Below, in pieces: positions 1 through 8,255 of a stretch of DNA of 64,000 nucleotides. The notes beneath the pieces were generated by a model. The model worked only from the letters and a program-made list of their open reading frames with translations, did not search any database and was not told the origin of the DNA. The position numbers and the translations under genes are program-made. Numbering within the stretch: the first letter of the stretch is position 1; every line of letters starts with the position of its first letter. This DNA is from Escherichia phage PNJ-9: the sequence record PQ100635.1. One strand, 5' to 3'.

Positions 1-2
1 AA

Positions 3-434
3 AAACGTATTCGCGAACTTGTTATTGAAAAGAATAAGCAAGCCGCTTCTAAGGAACGTGAAATTCGTAAGCTCTTGGCTGAAGGACAAGATGTTACCAT
101 GCATGCTAAGCTTGGTCTTCTGTATCGTCGAACTGCCGAACAACTTAATACAAAAGCCGACGGGTACGCTGCTATGCGAATTGAAATTGCTCGTAAGGTG
201 GTTGAACTTGATGATGCTCGTCAGAACCTGGCAATCAAACTTGAATACATTCGTGAAACTCGAGCGGCCAATGCCCTTGGTATCTCTACGGCTGATGATG
301 TAATTGAAATCGCTGCACTGACTAAGGTTGATATCGAAGACACTCTGACTCGTGTTGAAACGTTCAATGGCACTCCAGCTGGTGTCGAAACCACTTCTGC
401 TGATGTACAAGAATATATTAACTCTTTGAAATAA
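3..434 (+). CDS. hypothetical protein, 5' end truncated by window edge
   Basis: Open frame from window start to TAA at 432-434; followed by stem-loop/T-run terminator. Confidence 0.55.
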
Positions 435-442
435 AATAATAC

Positions 443-464
443 GGAGGACTCCGGTCCTCCTTTT
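443..464 (+). terminator. intrinsic terminator
   Basis: GGAGGAC-TCCG-GTCCTCC stem-loop then TTTT. Confidence 0.65.
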
Positions 465-483
465 GGATAATAAAGGAGTTAAC

Positions 484-1080
484 ATGCGAAACCAAAATAA
501 TGATATTGACTCAATGTTCGAAGAGTTCCGAGATAAGGTAAATCCACCTACGTCTTTAGTTGATTCATTACGATATGTTGCAACTGGACGTAAATGGTAC
601 TGGTCGTCTTCTTATGAGACAACTGAATATGCAAATAACCGAAAATCTTTATTAGCCCCAGGTATTATGATTCATGATATCGGAGCTATTGCTAAACTAG
701 TTGCAGACCATGATATTAGATTCACTGATTTCGTTGCTCCTACGTGGTCTGTTTGTTGTTTAAACACTGAATGGGAATATATCAGCGAACGCTCTGAAGA
801 TTATTATGGTTTTAGAGACAAGCTTTTAAGGTCTAACATGTTTTATATTGATACAGAAGTTCTGGTCAATAATAAAAAATATTACTTTACGTTAATCGTC
901 GATTCTGAAACTATGTATGAAGGCAAGCCTTTGCTTAAAAGAGTTGATGCTTTAAGTGCTATTGATGCGCTTTATGAAACTATGGTTGTTAGTCCTAATT
1001 TCACTAACAATTTAATCCTTGAGCAATTTATTATGGAATGTAGAGAATATGTCAAAGCCAACCCTATACATGCCAAGTAA
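484..1080 (+). CDS. hypothetical protein
   Basis: ORF track 463-1080; first ATG at 484 preceded by AAGGAG. Confidence 0.6.
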   Translation: MRNQNNDIDSMFEEFRDKVNPPTSLVDSLRYVATGRKWYWSSSYETTEYANNRKSLLAPGIMIHDIGAIAKLVADHDIRFTDFVAPTWSVCCLNTEWEYISERSEDYYGFRDKLLRSNMFYIDTEVLVNNKKYYFTLIVDSETMYEGKPLLKRVDALSAIDALYETMVVSPNFTNNLILEQFIMECREYVKANPIHAK

Positions 1081-1444
1081 GCCCTGGGCGTATGAATACA
1101 AGCGTAAATTAATCCCAAATGAAGTACTATTTGGCCCTATTTTAGCTTTAGCGTTTTTAATCTTTATGATTATAGGAGCTATTTTAGATTCCAATAAAGT
1201 TATATCGTCTGATGCAGTGTTTTTACTTATTATACCCGGGTCGTTTATTGTACCATTTTTATTAATGCCTATTAACTGGGCAGGATATTGGTACCAAGGC
1301 CGTCATCACAGAGCTCGAGTTCGTGAGTGGAAAGTTCAGTGCGCAAAAGCCCAAGCTCAATATGATGAAGCTGTTAAAAAGTATGAATATGAAGAAGCTA
1401 TAGAATTCGTTAAGGAAATAAGATGCAAAAGCCTCAACTCTTAA
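1049..1444 (+). CDS. small membrane protein, C-terminal E-x-FhKEhRC tail family
   Basis: Hydrophobic helices; C-terminal EAIEFVKEIRCK resembles tails of ORFs at 1423, 4196, 5189; start ambiguous (1049 or 1070). Confidence 0.5.
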   Translation: MSKPTLYMPSKPWAYEYKRKLIPNEVLFGPILALAFLIFMIIGAILDSNKVISSDAVFLLIIPGSFIVPFLLMPINWAGYWYQGRHHRARVREWKVQCAKAQAQYDEAVKKYEYEEAIEFVKEIRCKSLNS

Positions 1445-1782
1445 CCGTATGGCCGTCTCTTGGTGAGAACATTCTAATTTTTATTATGAGTATTGGCATG
1501 GGATTTGCCTTTGGATTAGTTGGATTTCTTATTGACGGAGTTGTGTTAGGATTTATAGGGAATACAGGTGGATTCACAGACCAATGGCAGGACCTAAGAT
1601 ACACCCAAGCTTTTGCATCTATCGCATCATTTTGTACCGTAGTCTATTTTTACTACGATTTTATAAACCATAACAAGAAAAATAAAAAGGTTTACGCTTC
1701 TCAAATGATTAGTTATAATGAACTCCTAGCTAGACGTGAAAATGAAACAATAGAAAACTTTATTAAGGAATGTAGAAAATGA
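1423..1782 (+). CDS. small membrane protein, C-terminal ENFIKECR tail family
   Basis: Two predicted TM helices; C-terminus NETIENFIKECRK; AAGGA upstream of ATG. Confidence 0.6.
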   Translation: MQKPQLLTVWPSLGENILIFIMSIGMGFAFGLVGFLIDGVVLGFIGNTGGFTDQWQDLRYTQAFASIASFCTVVYFYYDFINHNKKNKKVYASQMISYNELLARRENETIENFIKECRK

Positions 1783-2084
1783 GTAAGATTATTGAAATTA
1801 AAGTACCAGAGTTTAATGATGCCAAATCCGCTTCAGATGCAATTTATAAACTTCTGAATCAAGCTGAACGCATCGAAGAAGAAGCAACAAAGATCGCAGA
1901 CCAATATGCTGTATCATTTTCTGTAGGTGATTATGGTAGCGGTCGTACTTATTATCCTAAGGGTGAAATTGTATCCCAGTGGATGAAAGATGAAATTGAA
2001 AATAATGGTGGTGATGTTAAACGTGAAGGTAATGGTTACGTTATTACTGAAGGTGCTTGGGTTTCTTCTTCTGCGATGTGCTAA
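1779..2084 (+). CDS. hypothetical protein, tandem paralog 1 (GWxSSxxC tail)
   Basis: ATGA overlap with upstream stop; C-terminus GAWVSSSAMC. Confidence 0.6.
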   Translation: MSKIIEIKVPEFNDAKSASDAIYKLLNQAERIEEEATKIADQYAVSFSVGDYGSGRTYYPKGEIVSQWMKDEIENNGGDVKREGNGYVITEGAWVSSSAMC

Positions 2085-2093
2085 GGAATCATT

Positions 2094-2366
2094 ATGTCTA
2101 AAGAACAAACCGAACTGGCTGAAGCCGTAGCAAAAATCTATGCAGCTATTGAGGCTGCCAAAGAAATTGCTGATAAACAAAACACAACATTCGACTTGTA
2201 TCCAGCTTATGGTATGGGTGGAACCTATCATTCACCCGGACAACTTAAAGCCGATCTTGAACGTTGTACAAAAAACGGCTATGCTGAATGGGCTGACGTT
2301 TACCAATACGACTACAACCTGAGCCTCGAAACTGGTGGTTGGATTGCATCTTCTCACACTTGCTAA
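2094..2366 (+). CDS. hypothetical protein, tandem paralog 2 (GWxSSxxC tail)
   Basis: C-terminus GGWIASSHTC; AAGGAA upstream. Confidence 0.6.
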   Translation: MSKEQTELAEAVAKIYAAIEAAKEIADKQNTTFDLYPAYGMGGTYHSPGQLKADLERCTKNGYAEWADVYQYDYNLSLETGGWIASSHTC

Positions 2367-2375
2367 GGAAACCAT

Positions 2376-2573
2376 ATGTCTCGTGAATTAGATTGTGCTG
2401 TACGTACGGCAGTAGCTGCTCTGGAAAACCTGTTCCAAATTGCAACAGAAGAACGCGAAGAAGTTACATTGTGGATTGAAGATAACGCAGGTCTGAATCT
2501 CCAGGACGCGATCTCATTATCCAATAATAGCATTACTGTTCAAGGCTGGGTATCATCTAGTTATTCTTGCTAA
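2376..2573 (+). CDS. hypothetical protein, tandem paralog 3 (GWxSSxxC tail)
   Basis: C-terminus QGWVSSSYSC; AAGGAA upstream. Confidence 0.55.
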   Translation: MSRELDCAVRTAVAALENLFQIATEEREEVTLWIEDNAGLNLQDAISLSNNSITVQGWVSSSYSC

Positions 2574-2577
2574 AACA

Positions 2578-2616
2578 GTTTACAACAAGATAGGGCTATG
2601 TTATAGTAGTCCTATC
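2578..2616 (+). promoter_or_regulatory. early-promoter-like cassette with flanking inverted repeat
   Basis: GTTTAC, 18 bp, TATAGT; IR GATAGGGCTA/TAGTCCTATC around -10. Confidence 0.5.
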
Positions 2617-2635
2617 AAATTAAATGGAGTCCACA

Positions 2636-2875
2636 ATGATTTATTACGAAAGTGTTGGAACTAAAGTGGTTGCTAAAACCATTACTCGTGAAAAGTTTGC
2701 AAAGATATTCGATATGCGTTATAAAAAATCTGAACACAAAGGCATCCGATTCGAAGATGCGCACTGTACAATTTGTCCTTATAATGAAGACATAAACGGT
2801 ACAATCGTTCCATTGGTAGAGGCTTCACATGACGACCTCTGGGATGAATATAATATCGCATGTCGCGAAATTTAA
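2636..2875 (+). CDS. hypothetical protein
   Basis: ORF track 2624-2875; ATG at 2636 with GGAG 6 nt upstream, just downstream of an early-promoter cassette. Confidence 0.55.
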   Translation: MIYYESVGTKVVAKTITREKFAKIFDMRYKKSEHKGIRFEDAHCTICPYNEDINGTIVPLVEASHDDLWDEYNIACREI

Positions 2876-2900
2876 GTAATCTAAATTCGAGGAAATTATT

Positions 2901-3857
2901 ATGATGTTAGTTATTGGTTCTCGTGCACTTCACTATCACAGTCTTATTGATTCTAACGCTATCAAAAATAGTGACTGGGACTTTATTGCAGACCAAGGTT
3001 CTTGGAATGCATTCAAAAATCAAATGATGGGTGTATATGTTCATCAAGATAACCCTGATGTCCAAGTTTTCAAATGCTTCCATAATGGACGCGAAACTCA
3101 TTTTGAAGCATATATTGTTCCGGCAATCACTAATGTCCGTGAATTAGTCGGTGAACTCACTCCTGAAGATTTCACGTCTTCTTATGACCTTTTAAAATAC
3201 GCCAAGAAAAATTTGACTAAAGACCGTTTGAACGGGTTTTACTGGGCAACTCCTGAGATATGTCTTGCAATTAAAATGTCTCATCGTTTCAAGAAAAATA
3301 ATCCATTCTTTTTAAAGACTATGAACCATATTCAGTATCTTCGTGGTAAAGGTGTTACACTGAACGATGAACTTACTGAAATTATGCTGAAACGCCAGAA
3401 AGAAACTTTGAACTATGCTCACCCAGTTCTTGACACTTCTAAAAGTGCGTTCTTTAAAGATGACATCTATACATATGACCATGATACTATTCACGAAGCC
3501 ATTGCACTAACAGACCGTCCGGCTTATACGTTTTACATGAAAGACGGTTCTGAAGTCATGACCTCACGCGAGAAGTTCGAATCGTTACCAGAAATGGTCA
3601 AATTGGCCGGCGTATATGAAGAATCATGTGTACTAGCGTTAGAACGTTCTCAGATTCCTAATAACTTTGAAATTAACCCTGAAGCCAGTTTCATGATGGC
3701 ATTAGAAAAAGTCTGCACAAGCATCACCTCCGGTTGGTTCCGTGAGTTCGCTTGGGAAAATTATAGCAAAGTAGTAAGTATGTATCAAAGCTTAGGACAC
3801 GACGATTACGTCAAGCGTTTCAAACAAAATTTTCATATGGTAAAACCTTTCAAATAA
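2901..3857 (+). CDS. hypothetical protein (318 aa)
   Basis: Long ORF with GAGGAAA upstream; no family assigned. Confidence 0.65.
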   Translation: MMLVIGSRALHYHSLIDSNAIKNSDWDFIADQGSWNAFKNQMMGVYVHQDNPDVQVFKCFHNGRETHFEAYIVPAITNVRELVGELTPEDFTSSYDLLKYAKKNLTKDRLNGFYWATPEICLAIKMSHRFKKNNPFFLKTMNHIQYLRGKGVTLNDELTEIMLKRQKETLNYAHPVLDTSKSAFFKDDIYTYDHDTIHEAIALTDRPAYTFYMKDGSEVMTSREKFESLPEMVKLAGVYEESCVLALERSQIPNNFEINPEASFMMALEKVCTSITSGWFREFAWENYSKVVSMYQSLGHDDYVKRFKQNFHMVKPFK

Positions 3858-3869
3858 TTTCACCAAACT

Positions 3870-3904
3870 GTTTACAAGGTCTGTAGTTGTTGATACTATA
3901 GACC
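3870..3904 (+). promoter_or_regulatory. early-promoter-like cassette with inverted repeat
   Basis: GTTTAC, 18 bp, TACTAT; IR GGTCTGTAG/CTATAGACC. Confidence 0.45.
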
Positions 3905-3936
3905 TATCAAAACAAATGAGTGAATGGAGATACAAA

Positions 3937-4137
3937 ATGACTACTTTGAATAAACGTTTCGGTAAAGCTAAACCTGGCTGTGCAGCAGAACGTCGTTACA
4001 TTTTCGCTCAGTTAGAAGATGTAGAGTATCAGATTAATCAAGTTCACATTACTGGCATCGAGCCTATGTGTGGCCTTGAAGCTCTTCGTGAAGTTCGTGA
4101 CGGGTATCGTCGTGATATCGAAGAAATGTCAAAATAA
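3937..4137 (+). CDS. hypothetical small protein
   Basis: ORF track 3916-4137; ATG at 3937 has better spacing to GGAG. Confidence 0.5.
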   Translation: MTTLNKRFGKAKPGCAAERRYIFAQLEDVEYQINQVHITGIEPMCGLEALREVRDGYRRDIEEMSK

Positions 4138-4176
4138 GTGTACAAACTGATAGGGCTATGTTATAGTAGTCCTATT
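4138..4176 (+). promoter_or_regulatory. early-promoter-like cassette with inverted repeat
   Basis: GTGTAC, 18 bp, TATAGT; same GATAGGGCTA...TAGTCCTAT module as at 2589. Confidence 0.45.
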
Positions 4177-4195
4177 AAAACATGAGGAGAATATT

Positions 4196-4501
4196 ATGAA
4201 ATTAACAGAAACCAACCGAATTGGTCTTTTAACAATACTTGCATCACCTTTTTACGCAGCCCTTTCTGTTGCAGTATTACAAAAGGCTTACGATATGGAT
4301 GGTGTTCCTGGTTTTATATTCTTATCGCCGTTTTTGCTATTCGTTGGAGCATTGTTATTATATGCCACGACTGGTTTCGACCATAATGTCTGGGTCAATT
4401 ATAAATGTAAATTGTCTGAAGAAGAACACGCAGAAGCTCGTAAAAAAGCTATTGAATCTACCAATCTAGAAAATTTCATTAAAGAATGTCGAGGAAAATA
4501 A
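4196..4501 (+). CDS. small membrane protein, C-terminal ENFIKECR tail family
   Basis: TM helices; C-terminus STNLENFIKECRGK; GAGGAG upstream. Confidence 0.6.
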   Translation: MKLTETNRIGLLTILASPFYAALSVAVLQKAYDMDGVPGFIFLSPFLLFVGALLLYATTGFDHNVWVNYKCKLSEEEHAEARKKAIESTNLENFIKECRGK

Positions 4502-4502
4502 T

Positions 4503-5189
4503 ATGAATAGTTCTAAAGTGTTTAATAGTCAAGCTCGTGCAGTAGGTGGTTTTGCCGGCGGTATTTCTAATGATAAAATCAAGAACGAGCCTATGTTCTT
4601 CAACTGTAGTTTAGAATTTGCTTATAATAATGGCGGTCCTATTACTCGCTCTTTCATTATGAACTTGCCGGATGATTGGAACACCGACCAGGTTGTATTT
4701 GATTCACGAGTCCACATGCTGATGCCTGGTTGGTATCCTGCTATTCCTGGATATCACCATGATGACGTACCACGCCCAGATATTCCAACAGGACAACATT
4801 TTATTACTGCAGGACAACCTGATTATGACAACCCTCGTTACCATTCTGAACATATTCTTGGTCTTGTTAACGCTGATGTGTGTCCTACTCATTTTGCAAC
4901 AGGAACTGCAGAGTTCAGTCAGATTCCTGATGGCGAACTTATCTATCGCCAGTGGCACAAAGAAGTCCTCGAAAAAATCGAAAAAGGCGAACTAGAGAAA
5001 TGGGAAGCTCCGGACCGTACTCTTCTTCAGTTTGATTGGCAAACATGGCACACTGGTTCTCGTGCAATTAGTAATGGATGGCGGTGGTTCGGACGTGTAT
5101 CTCGTAATACAGACCGAGTTAAAAAGATTACCAATGAAATTCGTGTCAACGCCCAAGTTTATCTGGAATTCCCTATGGAAGGCTGGTAA
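4503..5189 (+). CDS. hypothetical protein (228 aa)
   Basis: ORF track; starts 2 nt after upstream stop. Confidence 0.6.
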   Translation: MNSSKVFNSQARAVGGFAGGISNDKIKNEPMFFNCSLEFAYNNGGPITRSFIMNLPDDWNTDQVVFDSRVHMLMPGWYPAIPGYHHDDVPRPDIPTGQHFITAGQPDYDNPRYHSEHILGLVNADVCPTHFATGTAEFSQIPDGELIYRQWHKEVLEKIEKGELEKWEAPDRTLLQFDWQTWHTGSRAISNGWRWFGRVSRNTDRVKKITNEIRVNAQVYLEFPMEGW

Positions 5190-5668
5190 TGATTAACAAT
5201 AATATAGACGATGGCAATGAAGGTATTTCATACTATTCAGTAGATTGGACAGGATGTCCATCCTACTTAGTGAAACATATTTGCCAAGAATTTAAAATCG
5301 ACCAGCCAGCAGGTATTATCGTGAACAGATACATTAATGGATATCAACCTATCGATGAAGTAATACGAACAACTCAAGCTGAGCTTGAAAAGTTTTTCAA
5401 TAAGTGCCAATGGATAACAGGATGGATTATATTTGTACCGTCAGTGTGGTTTTTTAGTACTAAGGTGAGTTCTTTCGGTTTTGTTGATATTATTGCTATC
5501 TTATTAGCATCTAGTATCATAAGTGTTGTTGGTGGCATCATTGGCGGCGGTACCGCCGCCATCATTATTAATCTTGTTAAAAGTAGTTTACAGGAACGTA
5601 AAGACAAGATAAAGGCCAAGAATAATGAAGTTGAACGTTTTATTACCGAATGCAGGAATTTGAGATGA
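5189..5668 (+). CDS. membrane protein, C-terminal ERFITECR tail family
   Basis: TAATG overlap; Gly-rich TM segment; C-terminus NNEVERFITECRNLR. Confidence 0.6.
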   Translation: MINNNIDDGNEGISYYSVDWTGCPSYLVKHICQEFKIDQPAGIIVNRYINGYQPIDEVIRTTQAELEKFFNKCQWITGWIIFVPSVWFFSTKVSSFGFVDIIAILLASSIISVVGGIIGGGTAAIIINLVKSSLQERKDKIKAKNNEVERFITECRNLR

Positions 5669-5901
5669 GTATAGCAATTTACATTAAATCGGAATCGTGT
5701 GATAGTTATCTGTACACATACGATAAAGATGTGTCAGAAGAAAAAATCAAAGACGACCTTAATATGGACCTTGATATGTTCCGTCCTATTGCAGATTACA
5801 AACTTGCGGTCTCTAATAGTGAAAGTCCATCTAAAGAAACGCGCATTGAAGAATTTATGTCCGAATTAATGGCCAAATCATGGGACCGAGATGATGAGTA
5901 A
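5665..5901 (+). CDS. hypothetical acidic protein
   Basis: ATGA overlap with upstream stop; ORF track 5650-5901. Confidence 0.5.
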   Translation: MSIAIYIKSESCDSYLYTYDKDVSEEKIKDDLNMDLDMFRPIADYKLAVSNSESPSKETRIEEFMSELMAKSWDRDDE

Positions 5902-6349
5902 GAAAAATAAAGTGAAAGAACTATCAGCAGGTATTATTTTCCTTACCGAAGATAAAGAATTATTCATGGGGCGTGTAACTGGTTCTCGTCCTAAAGGTGC
6001 ATTAGCTCATCGGTGGGATATTCCTAAAGGTCGTGTCGAGCCCGGTGAATCTCCTATCGAAGCCGCTATTCGTGAATGCGAAGAAGAAACTGGGTTTACA
6101 CAATATGACCCTGCCTTCCTGAAAGACCTAGGTGAACATCATTACTCAGACAATAAGAATATTCATCTGTTCCTATATACCATCCCTGTAGAGCACGAGC
6201 AATTCAGAAACAGTGTTTGTAATTCCTATCATACGTTCCCAGACGGACGACAGATTCCTGAATTTGATGCATTCGCTTTAATTAAACCTTCTCAGTGGGA
6301 ATATGTAATGGGCAAATCATTATATAAGGTGCTCACTACCATCCTATAA
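5891..6349 (+). CDS. nudE: Nudix hydrolase NudE
   Basis: Nudix box GRVEPGESPIEAAIRECEEETG; matches T4 NudE (e.1) position next to lysozyme. Confidence 0.9.
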   Translation: MMSKKNKVKELSAGIIFLTEDKELFMGRVTGSRPKGALAHRWDIPKGRVEPGESPIEAAIRECEEETGFTQYDPAFLKDLGEHHYSDNKNIHLFLYTIPVEHEQFRNSVCNSYHTFPDGRQIPEFDAFALIKPSQWEYVMGKSLYKVLTTIL

Positions 6350-6351
6350 GT

Positions 6352-6382
6352 AATAAATACCTCCTATAAACGTGGGAGGTAT
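6352..6382 (+). promoter_or_regulatory. RBS-sequestering hairpin with late-promoter-like TATAAA in loop, upstream of e
   Basis: ATACCTCC (6357-6364) pairs with GGAGGTAT (6375-6382) covering the SD; loop TATAAACG. Confidence 0.5.
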
Positions 6383-6383
6383 T

Positions 6384-6872
6384 ATGAATATATTTGAAAT
6401 GCTTCGTAATGACGAAGGTCTTAGACTGACTTTATACAAAGACACTGAAGGCTTTTGGACAATTGGCATAGGTCATTTAGTAACAAAGAACCCGTCTTTA
6501 GCTGTAGCTAAAGCTGAACTTGACAGAATGATCGGGCGTAAATGCAACGGTACAATTACCCTTGATGAGGCTGAAAAGTTATTTAATGAAGACGTTGATA
6601 AAGCTGTTCGCGGAATCTTGGGTAATGCTAAACTTAAACCGGTATATGATTCTTTAGATGCGGTTCGTCGATGTGCATTGGTCAATATGGTCTTCCAAAT
6701 GGGTGTAGCAGGCGTCGCTGGTTTTACTAATTCTCTTCGTATGCTTCAACAGAAACGTTGGGATGAAGCGGCAGTAAATCTAGCACAATCTAAATGGTAT
6801 CGTCAGACACCTAATCGCGCGAAACGCGTAATCTCAACATTTAAAACAGGAACTTGGAAAGCGTATATATGA
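6384..6872 (+). CDS. e: endolysin (T4 lysozyme)
   Basis: [31 protein letters not shown]... near-identical to T4 lysozyme incl. catalytic E11/D20/T26 region; GGGAGG SD. Confidence 0.95.
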
Positions 6873-7150
6873 AAACATATAGCGAATTTTTATCAGAATC
6901 TATTCTTAACGAAGCTACTGACACATTTGCAACTAAGCTAGGTGCAGCTTTGGTTGAAGCTGAAAGTCTATTAGCACGTATTTCTGAACTTGCTAGTAAG
7001 ATAGATACTCGCAAATTTGAACGTACCAGCGATATCGTTAAGCTTGAAGCCTTGTTGCGTATGTGCGATAAACCGGAAGAAATCGCTAAGAACGGCTCGC
7101 TGATGAAACAACGTCTTGAAAAATATATTTCAGGCGCTTCAGAAAAATAG
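6869..7150 (+). CDS. capsid-targeting-sequence (CTS) protein, internal-protein-like
   Basis: N-terminus [10 protein letters not shown] resembles T4 internal-protein CTS MKTYQEFIAEA; ATGA overlap with e. Confidence 0.55.
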
Positions 7151-7628: not shown

Positions 7629-7889
7629 ATGAAAATGTATCAAGAATTTATCGCTGAAGCAGATGCCAAAGGTCATAAATTTAAAGTTAAAGCTTTCATT
7701 GGTGATGCGGAAGACTTTGGCTCATTAAAACGTAATGGGTATTTTTTCTTAGGTGGCGATGGTAAAGAAATCAACACCTATGCAAAACGTAGTGAAATTG
7801 CTTATGTTGTAGCAAGCCCTAAAGTAGATGTTGACGATATTGGATACGATTTTAACAACTTCGGAATTATTTCTGGCGGTAAAGCTTAA
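7629..7889 (+). CDS. internal protein (CTS-bearing head cargo)
   Basis: N-terminal MKMYQEFIAEA CTS motif. Confidence 0.7.
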   Translation: MKMYQEFIAEADAKGHKFKVKAFIGDAEDFGSLKRNGYFFLGGDGKEINTYAKRSEIAYVVASPKVDVDDIGYDFNNFGIISGGKA

Positions 7890-7952: not shown

Positions 7953-8255
7953 ATGAAAACTTATCAAGAATTTATCACCGAAGCGCGAGTAAGTGCAGGT
8001 AAATTAGAAGCCGCTATAAATAAAAAGGCCCATTCATTTCATGATTTGTCCGATAAAGACCGTAAGAAACTTGTAAGCCTTTATATTGACAAAGAGCGTA
8101 TTCTCGCTCTTCCTGGCGCTAATGAAGGTAAACAGGCCAAGCCTTTGAATGCTGTCGAAAAGAAAATTGATAACTTTGCTTCTAAATTCGGTATGTCTAT
8201 GGATGACCTTCAGCAAGCGGCTATCGAAGCAGCTAAAGTAATTAAAGGTAAATAA
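7953..8255 (+). CDS. internal protein (CTS-bearing head cargo)
   Basis: N-terminal MKTYQEFITEAR CTS motif; 100 aa, lysine-rich. Confidence 0.75.
   Translation: MKTYQEFITEARVSAGKLEAAINKKAHSFHDLSDKDRKKLVSLYIDKERILALPGANEGKQAKPLNAVEKKIDNFASKFGMSMDDLQQAAIEAAKVIKGK

Follow-up and report, generated by a model that had tools for sequence, protein, structure and literature searches.

A C-terminal tail shared by five early proteins

In a stretch of 64,000 nucleotides (nt) of Escherichia phage PNJ-9 (PQ100635.1), hereafter the window, five genes of the e cluster encode proteins that close with nearly the same peptide, for which the consensus is [LIV]-[EDN]-x-F-[IV]-K-E-C-R, with 0-15 mostly basic residues behind it. 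This tail motif is real, statistically solid and evolutionarily deep, and the most economical reading of the sequences is that it serves as a shared interaction signal. The open reading frames (ORFs) were identified from the annotation of close relatives and of phages T4 and RB69 as homologues of e.5, e.4, e.3, RB69ORF133c (133c below) and e.2, and over its first 8 kb the window matches Escherichia phage PNJ-6 (Mosigvirus, RB69-like, Tevenvirinae) with 100% identity. All five genes lie on the plus strand, which is the direction of early transcription in the window, and each product belongs to its own PHROG without known function (2607, 2604, 2330, 9798 and 2203, respectively). The features are as follows, with amino acid (aa) positions counted within each protein.

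484..1080, + strand: e.5 homologue, 198 aa, soluble (phrog_2607, E=6e-95 over 1-198; 47% identity to T4 e.5 over 198 aa)
1018..1047, + strand: e.5 tail LEQFIMECRE (full C-terminus ..LEQFIMECREYVKANPIHAK)
1049..1444, + strand: e.4 homologue, 131 aa (phrog_2604, E=9e-56; 52% identity to T4 e.4)
1127-1183 and 1217-1273, + strand: predicted membrane helices of e.4 (~aa 27-45 and 57-75), from hydropathy and Lys/Arg distribution
1397..1426, + strand: e.4 tail AIEFVKEIRC, with Ile at the Cys position (C-terminus ..EAIEFVKEIRCKSLNS)
1423..1782, + strand: e.3 homologue, 119 aa (phrog_2330, E=5e-50; 35% identity to T4 e.3)
1471-1533 and 1609-1665, + strand: predicted membrane helices of e.3 (~aa 17-37 and 63-81), placed by eye from the sequence
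1750..1779, + strand: e.3 tail IENFIKECRK
4196..4501, + strand: RB69ORF133c homologue, 101 aa (phrog_9798, E=7e-67)
4220-4276 and 4304-4360, + strand: predicted membrane helices of 133c (~aa 9-27 and 37-55), from hydropathy
4466..4495, + strand: 133c tail LENFIKECRG (C-terminus ..LENFIKECRGK)
5189..5668, + strand: e.2 homologue, 159 aa (phrog_2203, E=7e-50; PF26896 precomputed on fragments of the family)
5411-5467 and 5474-5578, + strand: predicted helix (aa 75-93) and 35-residue hydrophobic stretch (aa 96-130) of e.2, between a soluble N-terminal domain of ~74 aa and the tail, boundaries read by eye
5630..5659, + strand: e.2 tail VERFITECRN (C-terminus ..VERFITECRNLR)

The four ORFs for membrane proteins had been listed, with these tails, in an initial annotation made from the sequence alone, and they stand, with two helices in e.4 and 133c and two in e.3 placed by eye. 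An automated 19-residue hydropathy scan did not separate the hydrophobic stretches within e.3 or within e.2, and gave clear helices only in e.4 and 133c. The fifth tail protein, e.5 (484-1080), had been overlooked; it has no signal peptide and, by the hydropathy scan, no credible membrane helix. To call the group a family of small membrane proteins is therefore right for four of its members and too restrictive for the whole, since the soluble e.5 (198 aa) is tailed as well, and small soluble tail-bearing proteins are also present in related phages.

When all six frames of the 64 kb were scanned for F[ILVM]xE[CI]R, the motif was found in genuine ORFs only in e.5, e.4, e.3, 133c and e.2, in each case at most 11 residues from the stop. 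Among the plus-strand ORFs of at least 60 aa, 5 of 128 carried it in their last 20 residues, against 0.004 expected from 2000 residue shuffles, none of which gave more than one. In 11 related loci, a looser version of the motif, sought on both strands, matched only orthologues of e.2, e.3, e.4, e.5 and 133c. The similarity of the tails, whose significance the initial annotation had set as a test, is thus far beyond chance, and chance is excluded as an explanation.

Alignment of 30 distinct tails, numbered from the aromatic residue at position 0, showed L, I or V at -3, E, D or N at -2, F (28 tails) or W (2) at 0, I or V at +1, often K at +2 and E at +3, C at +4 in 23 of 30, and R or K at +5. 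In every one of the 30, 0-15 residues (most often 1-6) separate the motif from the C-terminus, and Lys or Arg usually comes next. Glu at +3 is present in only 15 of them, with Y, S, Q, N or G in its place in distant genera. The motif E-x-FIKECR, as first proposed, captured a conserved tail that is real and defined it too narrowly: what the genera have in common is the core F-[IV]-x-x-C-R, other residues often take the place of the Glu, and the e.4 lineage has no Cys.

A terminal position of this kind raises the question of whether the tail is a degradation or turnover signal, read by a host AAA+ protease or adaptor (ClpXP, FtsH, Lon) and setting a common removal schedule for early proteins. 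Its presence on both soluble and membrane proteins, 0-15 and most often 1-6 residues from the C-terminus and usually with Lys or Arg behind it, would suit such a role; MuA-type basic motifs at a C-terminus are signals for ClpX, and FtsH begins the degradation of its substrates, whether soluble or membrane-bound, at their ends. However, known C-terminal degrons are set by the last 3-6 residues, whereas the distance of the motif from the C-terminus varies and reaches 11-15 residues in several e.5 proteins, the residues after the Arg are not conserved, and the conserved F, I/V, C and R sit at internal positions that make up a helix face. Conservation at the extreme C-terminus, as in signals of the ssrA or MuA type, was not found in the 30 tails, and a degradation signal seems unlikely to us.

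The tail is conserved across T4-like phages

The initial annotation had suggested searching for the tail in other T4-like genomes, and it is indeed present in seven named genera and in one unclassified Klebsiella phage. Using tblastn, e.4 was found in 672 phage records, e.5 in 643 and Mosigvirus-type e.2 in 149, and the tail persists in all orthologous lineages, its range reaching from T4 to Aeromonas phage 44RR2.8t. The T4 tails are ..KEFVIDCRKIK (e.3), ..KFVKESRCKSQS (e.4) and ..KFVKECREYVK.. (EKFVKECREYVKAITIPSK; e.5), those of Gaprivervirus SP18 are ..NRFIAECREYAKG.., ..EEFIKEVRNGTA, ..ETFIKECKS and ..NSFIEECRK, and the tail is also present in Dhakavirus. More distant clusters were reached with the conserved neighbour e.6 as an anchor (1101 records), and each of these loci has an e.5-like gene right after e.6, followed by coupled genes for small membrane proteins with a relaxed tail. 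Examples are ..DEFIKYCRK, ..FEFIKEVRRK, ..NTWIRSCRK and ..DMFIAKCRAK in Klebsiella phage Roth76, ..LDFVDQCRAN.., ..ELFIKNVRRK, ..DKFVKGCRNG.. and ..TDFVKGCRNGRN in Kanagawavirus Q7622, ..DDFINLCRDE.., ..LTFIENCKNEK and ..KNFINSCRIIK in Moonvirus, and ..ELFVDYCRRTASKK in Aeromonas phage 44RR2.8t (Biquartavirus). The pattern [FW][IV]xxC[RK] occurs in the last 25 residues of 3-4 ORFs in each of six related loci and of one ORF in 44RR2.8t, with 0.008-0.016 expected per locus; in the window it occurs in 4 ORFs against 0.038 expected. An alignment of e.5-type proteins from eight phages has N94, F182, C186 and R187 as its only invariant columns; the last three of these are the F, C and R of the tail, so that in the e.5 superfamily a single invariant residue falls outside it.

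Profile searches were less far-reaching. A hmmsearch of 1.84 billion representatives with a narrow tail profile gave 9 matches at E<=1e-3, all of them T-even e.2, e.3, e.4 or 133c, but this profile missed the divergent tails found by synteny, so that its negative outcome does not bound the family. A word-indexed search with a 47-column tail profile returned just short fragments of the same families, with no full-length proteins among them, and so shed no light on other families.

For the individual genes, the comparison with relatives gave the following. The e.4 and e.3 homologues show full-length similarity to their families, two helices and an N-terminus M-[SQ]-K-P. The upstream start of e.4 at 1049, as used in the initial annotation, gives MSKPTLYMPSKP, in agreement with the T4 e.4 N-terminus MSKPSLYLPSKP, whereas GenBank records of PNJ-6 and RB69 place the start at the internal Met at 1070 (MPSKP); judged from this match, the true start is likely to be 1049 rather than 1070. 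Among the loci examined, 133c was seen only in Mosigvirus, and it matches weakly the C-terminal half of the e.2 family phrog_2203. The e.2 homologue has 23-26% identity over its full length to intact Tequatrovirus e.2 (E about 1e-9 to 1e-11), matches SP18 e.2 with E=6e-16, and contains the pattern W-x-x-[IL]-D-D-G-[DN]-E-G-I..VDW.GC of the N-terminal domain of the family. In T4 itself the reference e.2 (NP_049738, 102 aa) is broken: compared with the intact 162-aa e.2 of Tequatrovirus loci L006, L008 and L009, its frame shifts out and back, and in the T4 reference (L003 5492-5961, minus strand) the tail ..NNFITECRKLK (NLNNFITECRKLK) is stranded in a piece of unannotated sequence overlapping the start of nudE.

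The tail genes form coupled chains and selection acts on the protein

The tail genes are tightly packed. The overlap with the next gene is 32 nt for e.5/e.4 and 22 nt for e.4/e.3, the stops of e.3 and e.2 overlap the next start by 4 nt (ATGA), and 133c is followed by a gap of 1 nt; in distant phages the e-cluster chain is likewise coupled, via ATGA overlaps. This layout shows the tail genes to be expressed from the early strand in translationally coupled chains. The four T4 genes e.5-e.4-e.3-e.2 follow one another directly, and the orthologues (T4 NP_049738-NP_049741; RB69) stand in the same order between e.6 and nudE/e. In Mosigvirus, ~2.4 kb of other small genes together with 133c/132c have been inserted into the e cluster, and neither 133c nor the 2.4-kb insertion between e.3 and 133c is found in T4. 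The impression that the family is scattered among unrelated genes is therefore not borne out, as e.5, e.4 and e.3 overlap, the T4 set is contiguous, and later insertions split the cluster.

The codons of the tail vary, with AGA, AGG, CGA and CGT for Arg, TTT and TTC for Phe, and TGT and TGC for Cys, and among 15 distinct tail sequences the information at codon positions 1, 2 and 3 is 1.07, 1.39 and 0.74 bits. The ratio of non-synonymous to synonymous substitution rates (dN/dS) relative to RB69 is 0.15 for e.5, 0.27 for e.4, 0.02 for e.3 and 0.22 for e.2; 133c has too few substitutions relative to RB69 for this ratio. Because of these low values (0.02-0.27), e.5, e.4, e.3 and e.2 are to be regarded as expressed and selected proteins, and the codon data show that purifying selection at the protein level maintains the tail. 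The tail thus holds up as a real element, being under protein-level selection and common to otherwise dissimilar proteins.

The close packing could in principle impose the similarity at the nucleotide level, if the 3' end of each gene were kept as the ribosome-binding region of the next one for the sake of coupling. All five tails do overlap or abut the next start, and 5-10 nt ahead of that start the tail codons contain AAGGAA or AGGAA/GAGGA, of which AAGGAA would fix Lys-Glu and AGGAA would fix Arg-Asn/Lys. Moreover, the EYVKA codons after the e.5 tail are dual-coded with the e.4 start MSKP, and e.4 RCKS is dual-coded with e.3 MQKP, the Cys after the Arg stemming here from the e.3 ATG. Yet the place of the next start differs between genes, from 32 nt ahead of the stop to 1 nt past it, bases resembling a Shine-Dalgarno sequence land on different motif residues in each gene, F, I/V and C are left wholly unaccounted for, Arg switches between AGR and CGN codons, and distant phages with plain 4-nt overlaps retain the motif. 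Since codon usage varies, third positions vary most and dN/dS is low, the overlapping start of the next gene does not account for the tail. An origin in the Shine-Dalgarno sequence and start codon is largely refuted by the codon-position evidence, and we consider it scarcely credible.

Relationship among the tail-bearing proteins

Small orthologue alignments were compared profile to profile using hhalign. The e.4 and e.3 profiles align over their full length (P=1.2e-6, and P=7e-4 without the tail), both proteins begin with M-[SQ]-K-P, and by this comparison they are the only demonstrable full-length paralogues. Alignments of e.3 with 133c (46 columns, P=9e-6) and of 133c with e.2 (P=2.6e-4) cover 46-59 C-terminal columns, and those of e.5 with the others are limited to 9-15 tail columns; outside the tail, only e.4 and e.3 align significantly. 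Because e.5 matches the rest in tail columns only, the tail is the one element common to all five proteins, and almost all that they share. Judged from these profiles, the cluster is best described as having arisen partly by tandem duplication, with the same tail also present on an unrelated soluble domain.

Natural chimeras were also observed: P0033 combines an e.4 N-terminus with an e.2 C-terminus, P0018 (phage OLB35) combines e.3 with the e.4 tail, and P0007 is an e.4 without its membrane region. Such forms indicate that recombination between paralogues evidently occurs.

A related question is whether the tail is a mere relic of serial tandem duplication, that is, the slowest-decaying part of the proteins and without function. 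The full-length paralogy of e.4 and e.3, the alignment of e.3 with 133c and of 133c with e.2 over 46-59 columns, the clustering of the genes and the chimeras between members (P0033, P0018) are what serial duplication would leave behind. A neutral remnant, however, would not stay near-invariant while the remainder of the proteins fell to 15-30% identity, nor would it persist in every lineage across seven genera or account for all but one of the four residues that never vary in the e.5 superfamily, and the synonymous turnover at the conserved residues points to ongoing selection. A functionless relic is, in our judgement, distinctly improbable.

An internal tail-like sequence, AELEKFFNKCQ, was noticed in Mosigvirus e.2 (residues 64-74, window 5378-5410), just before the first hydrophobic helix. 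The match is below statistical significance and is not kept in T4-type e.2; it hints that Mosigvirus e.2 might be a soluble tail-bearing protein fused to a 133c-like membrane protein.

Topology and possible role of the tail

In e.4, e.3, 133c and e.2, the segment after the last helix is rich in Lys and Arg. Because of this, and because e.5 has no export signal, the tail is most probably cytoplasmic, as the initial annotation had assumed, with the topology of e.2 uncertain; the absence of both a signal peptide and a membrane helix from e.5 fits the same side of the membrane. AlphaFold places a helix at e.5 residues 177-192, the hydrophobic positions of the tail are spaced i, i+3, i+4, i+7, and the helical hydrophobic moment of the tail is 0.51 compared to 0.34 for shuffled sequences.

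These features suggest that the tail is a cytoplasmic amphipathic docking helix by which the proteins bind one another or a common partner, a reading to which we assign a probability of roughly one half. The tail would lie just beneath the inner membrane in the four membrane proteins, and its hydrophobic face, formed by positions -3, 0, +1 and +4 (L, F, I, C), would be buried in a protein interface. The partner might be the other tails, in which case soluble e.5 would be tethered to the membrane-embedded e.4, e.3, e.2 and 133c, or it might be one phage or host protein bound by all members. The conserved Cys could provide a thiol ligand to a metal shared between tails.

Several observations weigh against a docking helix. 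The excess in hydrophobic moment is only about one standard deviation, and the e.5 models are of low confidence (predicted local distance difference test scores of 64 and 54), so that the tail may be free or packed on its own domain. The Cys cannot have a universal role, as the e.4 lineage has V, M, I or S at +4. In addition, individual members are missing from natural genomes: e.2 is broken in T4, Dhakavirus has just one gene of the e.3/e.4 type, and one Tequatrovirus contig has no e.2 and a truncated e.5. Finally, T4 stays viable when its e.2-e.8 block is deleted (PMC9825161), so that the cluster, which T4 does not need for growth on laboratory E. coli, has an accessory role. Because members are individually lost, an obligate complex of fixed composition is unlikely, and these losses slightly favour a common external partner.

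A more specific and more tentative form of the docking reading is that F-[IV]-x-x-C-R works as a C-terminal address label, portable and specific to phages, carried by 3-6 soluble and membrane early proteins per Straboviridae genome and directing them to one partner. This partner could be a metal-bridged bundle of tails, ligated through the Cys, that builds a membrane complex around e.5, or one hub protein, of host or phage, which the e cluster would exist to capture. We regard this form as possible and rather doubtful; if true, it would amount to an unrecognised short-linear-motif system in T4, the best-studied phage.

Comparison with known sequences and systems

In T4, the leader of the internal head proteins targets them to the capsid, and the gp21 protease cuts after (L/I)-x-E. 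A leader of this kind, MKTYQEFITEAR, is found at window 7953, and the tail might be related to this capsid-targeting sequence (MKTYQEFIAE) and engage the prohead core or the gp21 protease. The similarity, a striking one, lies in E-F-I-x-E-x-R, which is seen in SP18 e.4 (EEFIKEVR), in e.2 (ERFITECR) and in the leader QEFITEAR 2.3 kb downstream, and genes for internal proteins are located in the same genome region. However, the targeting sequence is N-terminal, whereas the tail is C-terminal in 30 of 30 cases, many distant tails (FIKYCR, WIRSCR, FVDQCR, FVKGCR, FINLCR) have another residue where gp21 cleavage requires Glu, and the C-R kept in the tails is lacking in the leader. Furthermore, no late promoter TATAAATA is present in window 1-6500, integral membrane proteins cannot be packaged, and the resemblance was noticed post hoc and rests on 4-5 residues. 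The leaders of IPI, IPII and IPIII thus resemble the tail in being short and amphipathic, with an E-F-I-x-E core and in the same genome region, and differ from it in being N-terminal, cleaved by gp21 and without Cys-Arg, while the Glu of the tail varies across genera. A relationship of the tail to the capsid-targeting sequence fails on position and on Glu conservation, and is very improbable.

The direct orthologues of the five proteins, T4 and RB69 e.2-e.5 and RB69ORF133c, carry the same tails and are all annotated as hypothetical. In the literature found by gene name or motif string, including the RB69 comparative paper (PMC1524935), the shared tail is not described. The genes have long been known as hypothetical T4/RB69 ORFs. 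A single motif now links five orphan genes here, four in T4 and their counterparts in at least seven genera, and it offers an experimental handle, as a single peptide could be used to find the partner and mutations of F, C and R could be applied to all members. About half of the T4 genes are without known function. The practical consequences are otherwise modest, the genes being non-essential in the laboratory. No long-standing question is touched.

As an analogy, the C-terminal tail of SSB, the C-terminal peptide of FtsZ and the motifs recognised by ClpX are likewise short conserved C-terminal peptides on otherwise unrelated domains, each presumably with one reader; the phage tail differs from them in being helical (by prediction), in containing a Cys and in occurring on membrane as well as soluble proteins, and has no sequence kinship with them. 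T4 Imm, Sp, RI and Ac are also small inner-membrane early proteins that are dispensable in the laboratory. The tail proteins have no profile link to them, and none of the four is known to bear the tail. The phage shock system, in which PspA, a helical protein, acts beside the small membrane proteins PspB and PspC with their cytoplasmic helices, is reminiscent of e.6 and the e cluster; however, e.6 is set off from e.5 by a terminator-like hairpin, and similarity to PspA is unsupported.

The five proteins had no match in local Pfam, NCBIfam and PADLOC libraries. PADLOC gave no significant match to known anti-phage defence or counter-defence proteins, its models being defence models that cover counter-defence proteins poorly. 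Newer Pfam entries are found on database homologues, namely PF26876 (e.5), PF26873 (e.4) and PF26896 (e.2), of which PF26876 is precomputed on every e.5 homologue and was absent from the Pfam copy scanned. Two functional labels in existing records were rejected. 'Sulfurtransferase', given to e.3/e.4 in several GenBank entries, among them a T4 clone (OL964745, L017 1501-2237), implies a rhodanese- or TusA-type domain, for which there was no Pfam, NCBIfam or PDB match, and 'SdpI/YfhL', given to e.2 in one GenBank record, had neither profile nor PDB support. Both are probably spurious names that have been propagated.

Neighbouring genes

The remaining features of the region are the following.

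443..460, + strand: terminator-like hairpin between e.6 and e.5, at the upstream edge of the predicted e.5-e.4-e.3 transcription unit
75-434: C-terminal 119 aa of e.6 (full length 197 aa in locus L001, 2841-3434)
2636..2875, + strand: uncertain candidate for a sixth member, a 79-aa soluble ORF with a degenerate tail, ..WDEYNIACREI

In phage SA79RD, a terminator is annotated at the site that matches the hairpin. Judged by its sequence, the e.6 protein is coiled-coil-like; the 1101 phage records with this protein extend to phages of Klebsiella, Aeromonas and Erwinia. An e.5-type gene lies directly downstream of it in all nine loci compared (window, T4, RB69, SP18, Dhakavirus, Roth76, Q7622, Moon and 44RR2.8t). 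No Pfam match and no PDB sequence match was found for e.6, and a role as a PspA-like partner was rejected, as hhalign against E. coli PspA gave a probability of 0.2% and there was no match to Pfam PspA_IM30. The C-R of the candidate at 2636..2875 aligns with the tails of one small soluble family, comprising SP18 gp135 (..KLFLEYCRSSIQV), Q7622 11849, Moon 7780 and Roth76 11886; BLAST gives nothing significant for the candidate.

Downstream of e.2 lie ORF130c, nudE (e.1), lysozyme e and denV. Genes for internal head proteins flank denV, with ORFs at 6869-7150, 7629-7889 and 7953-8255 that start with the capsid-targeting leader. The RB69ORF132c homologue (228 aa, 4503-5189) adjoins 133c and overlaps the e.2 start; it has a conserved His/Asp-rich stretch (HMLMPGWYPAIPGYHHDDVPRPD...HSEHILG), and profile searches assigned it to no family. 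It was rejected as a specific partner of 133c or e.2: its 472 phage records extend to Mycobacterium and Gordonia phages, and as it is found in actinophages in which the tail family was not seen, it is an independent gene. The 318-aa RB69ORF134c homologue (window 2901-3857) contains DUF7277 (E=1e-27) and DUF7275 (E=4e-79) and is kept in SP18 and Aeromonas phage 44RR2.8t.

A second paralogous family is located between e.3 and 133c (window 1779-2084, 2094-2366 and 2376-2573). These small soluble proteins end in G-x-W-[VI]-[SA]-S-S-x-x-C with the Cys as the last residue (..GAWVSSSAMC, ..GGWIASSHTC, ..QGWVSSSYSC), and copies are present as five tandem genes in SP18 (L010 7691-8959) and also in Q7622, Moon and Dhakavirus.

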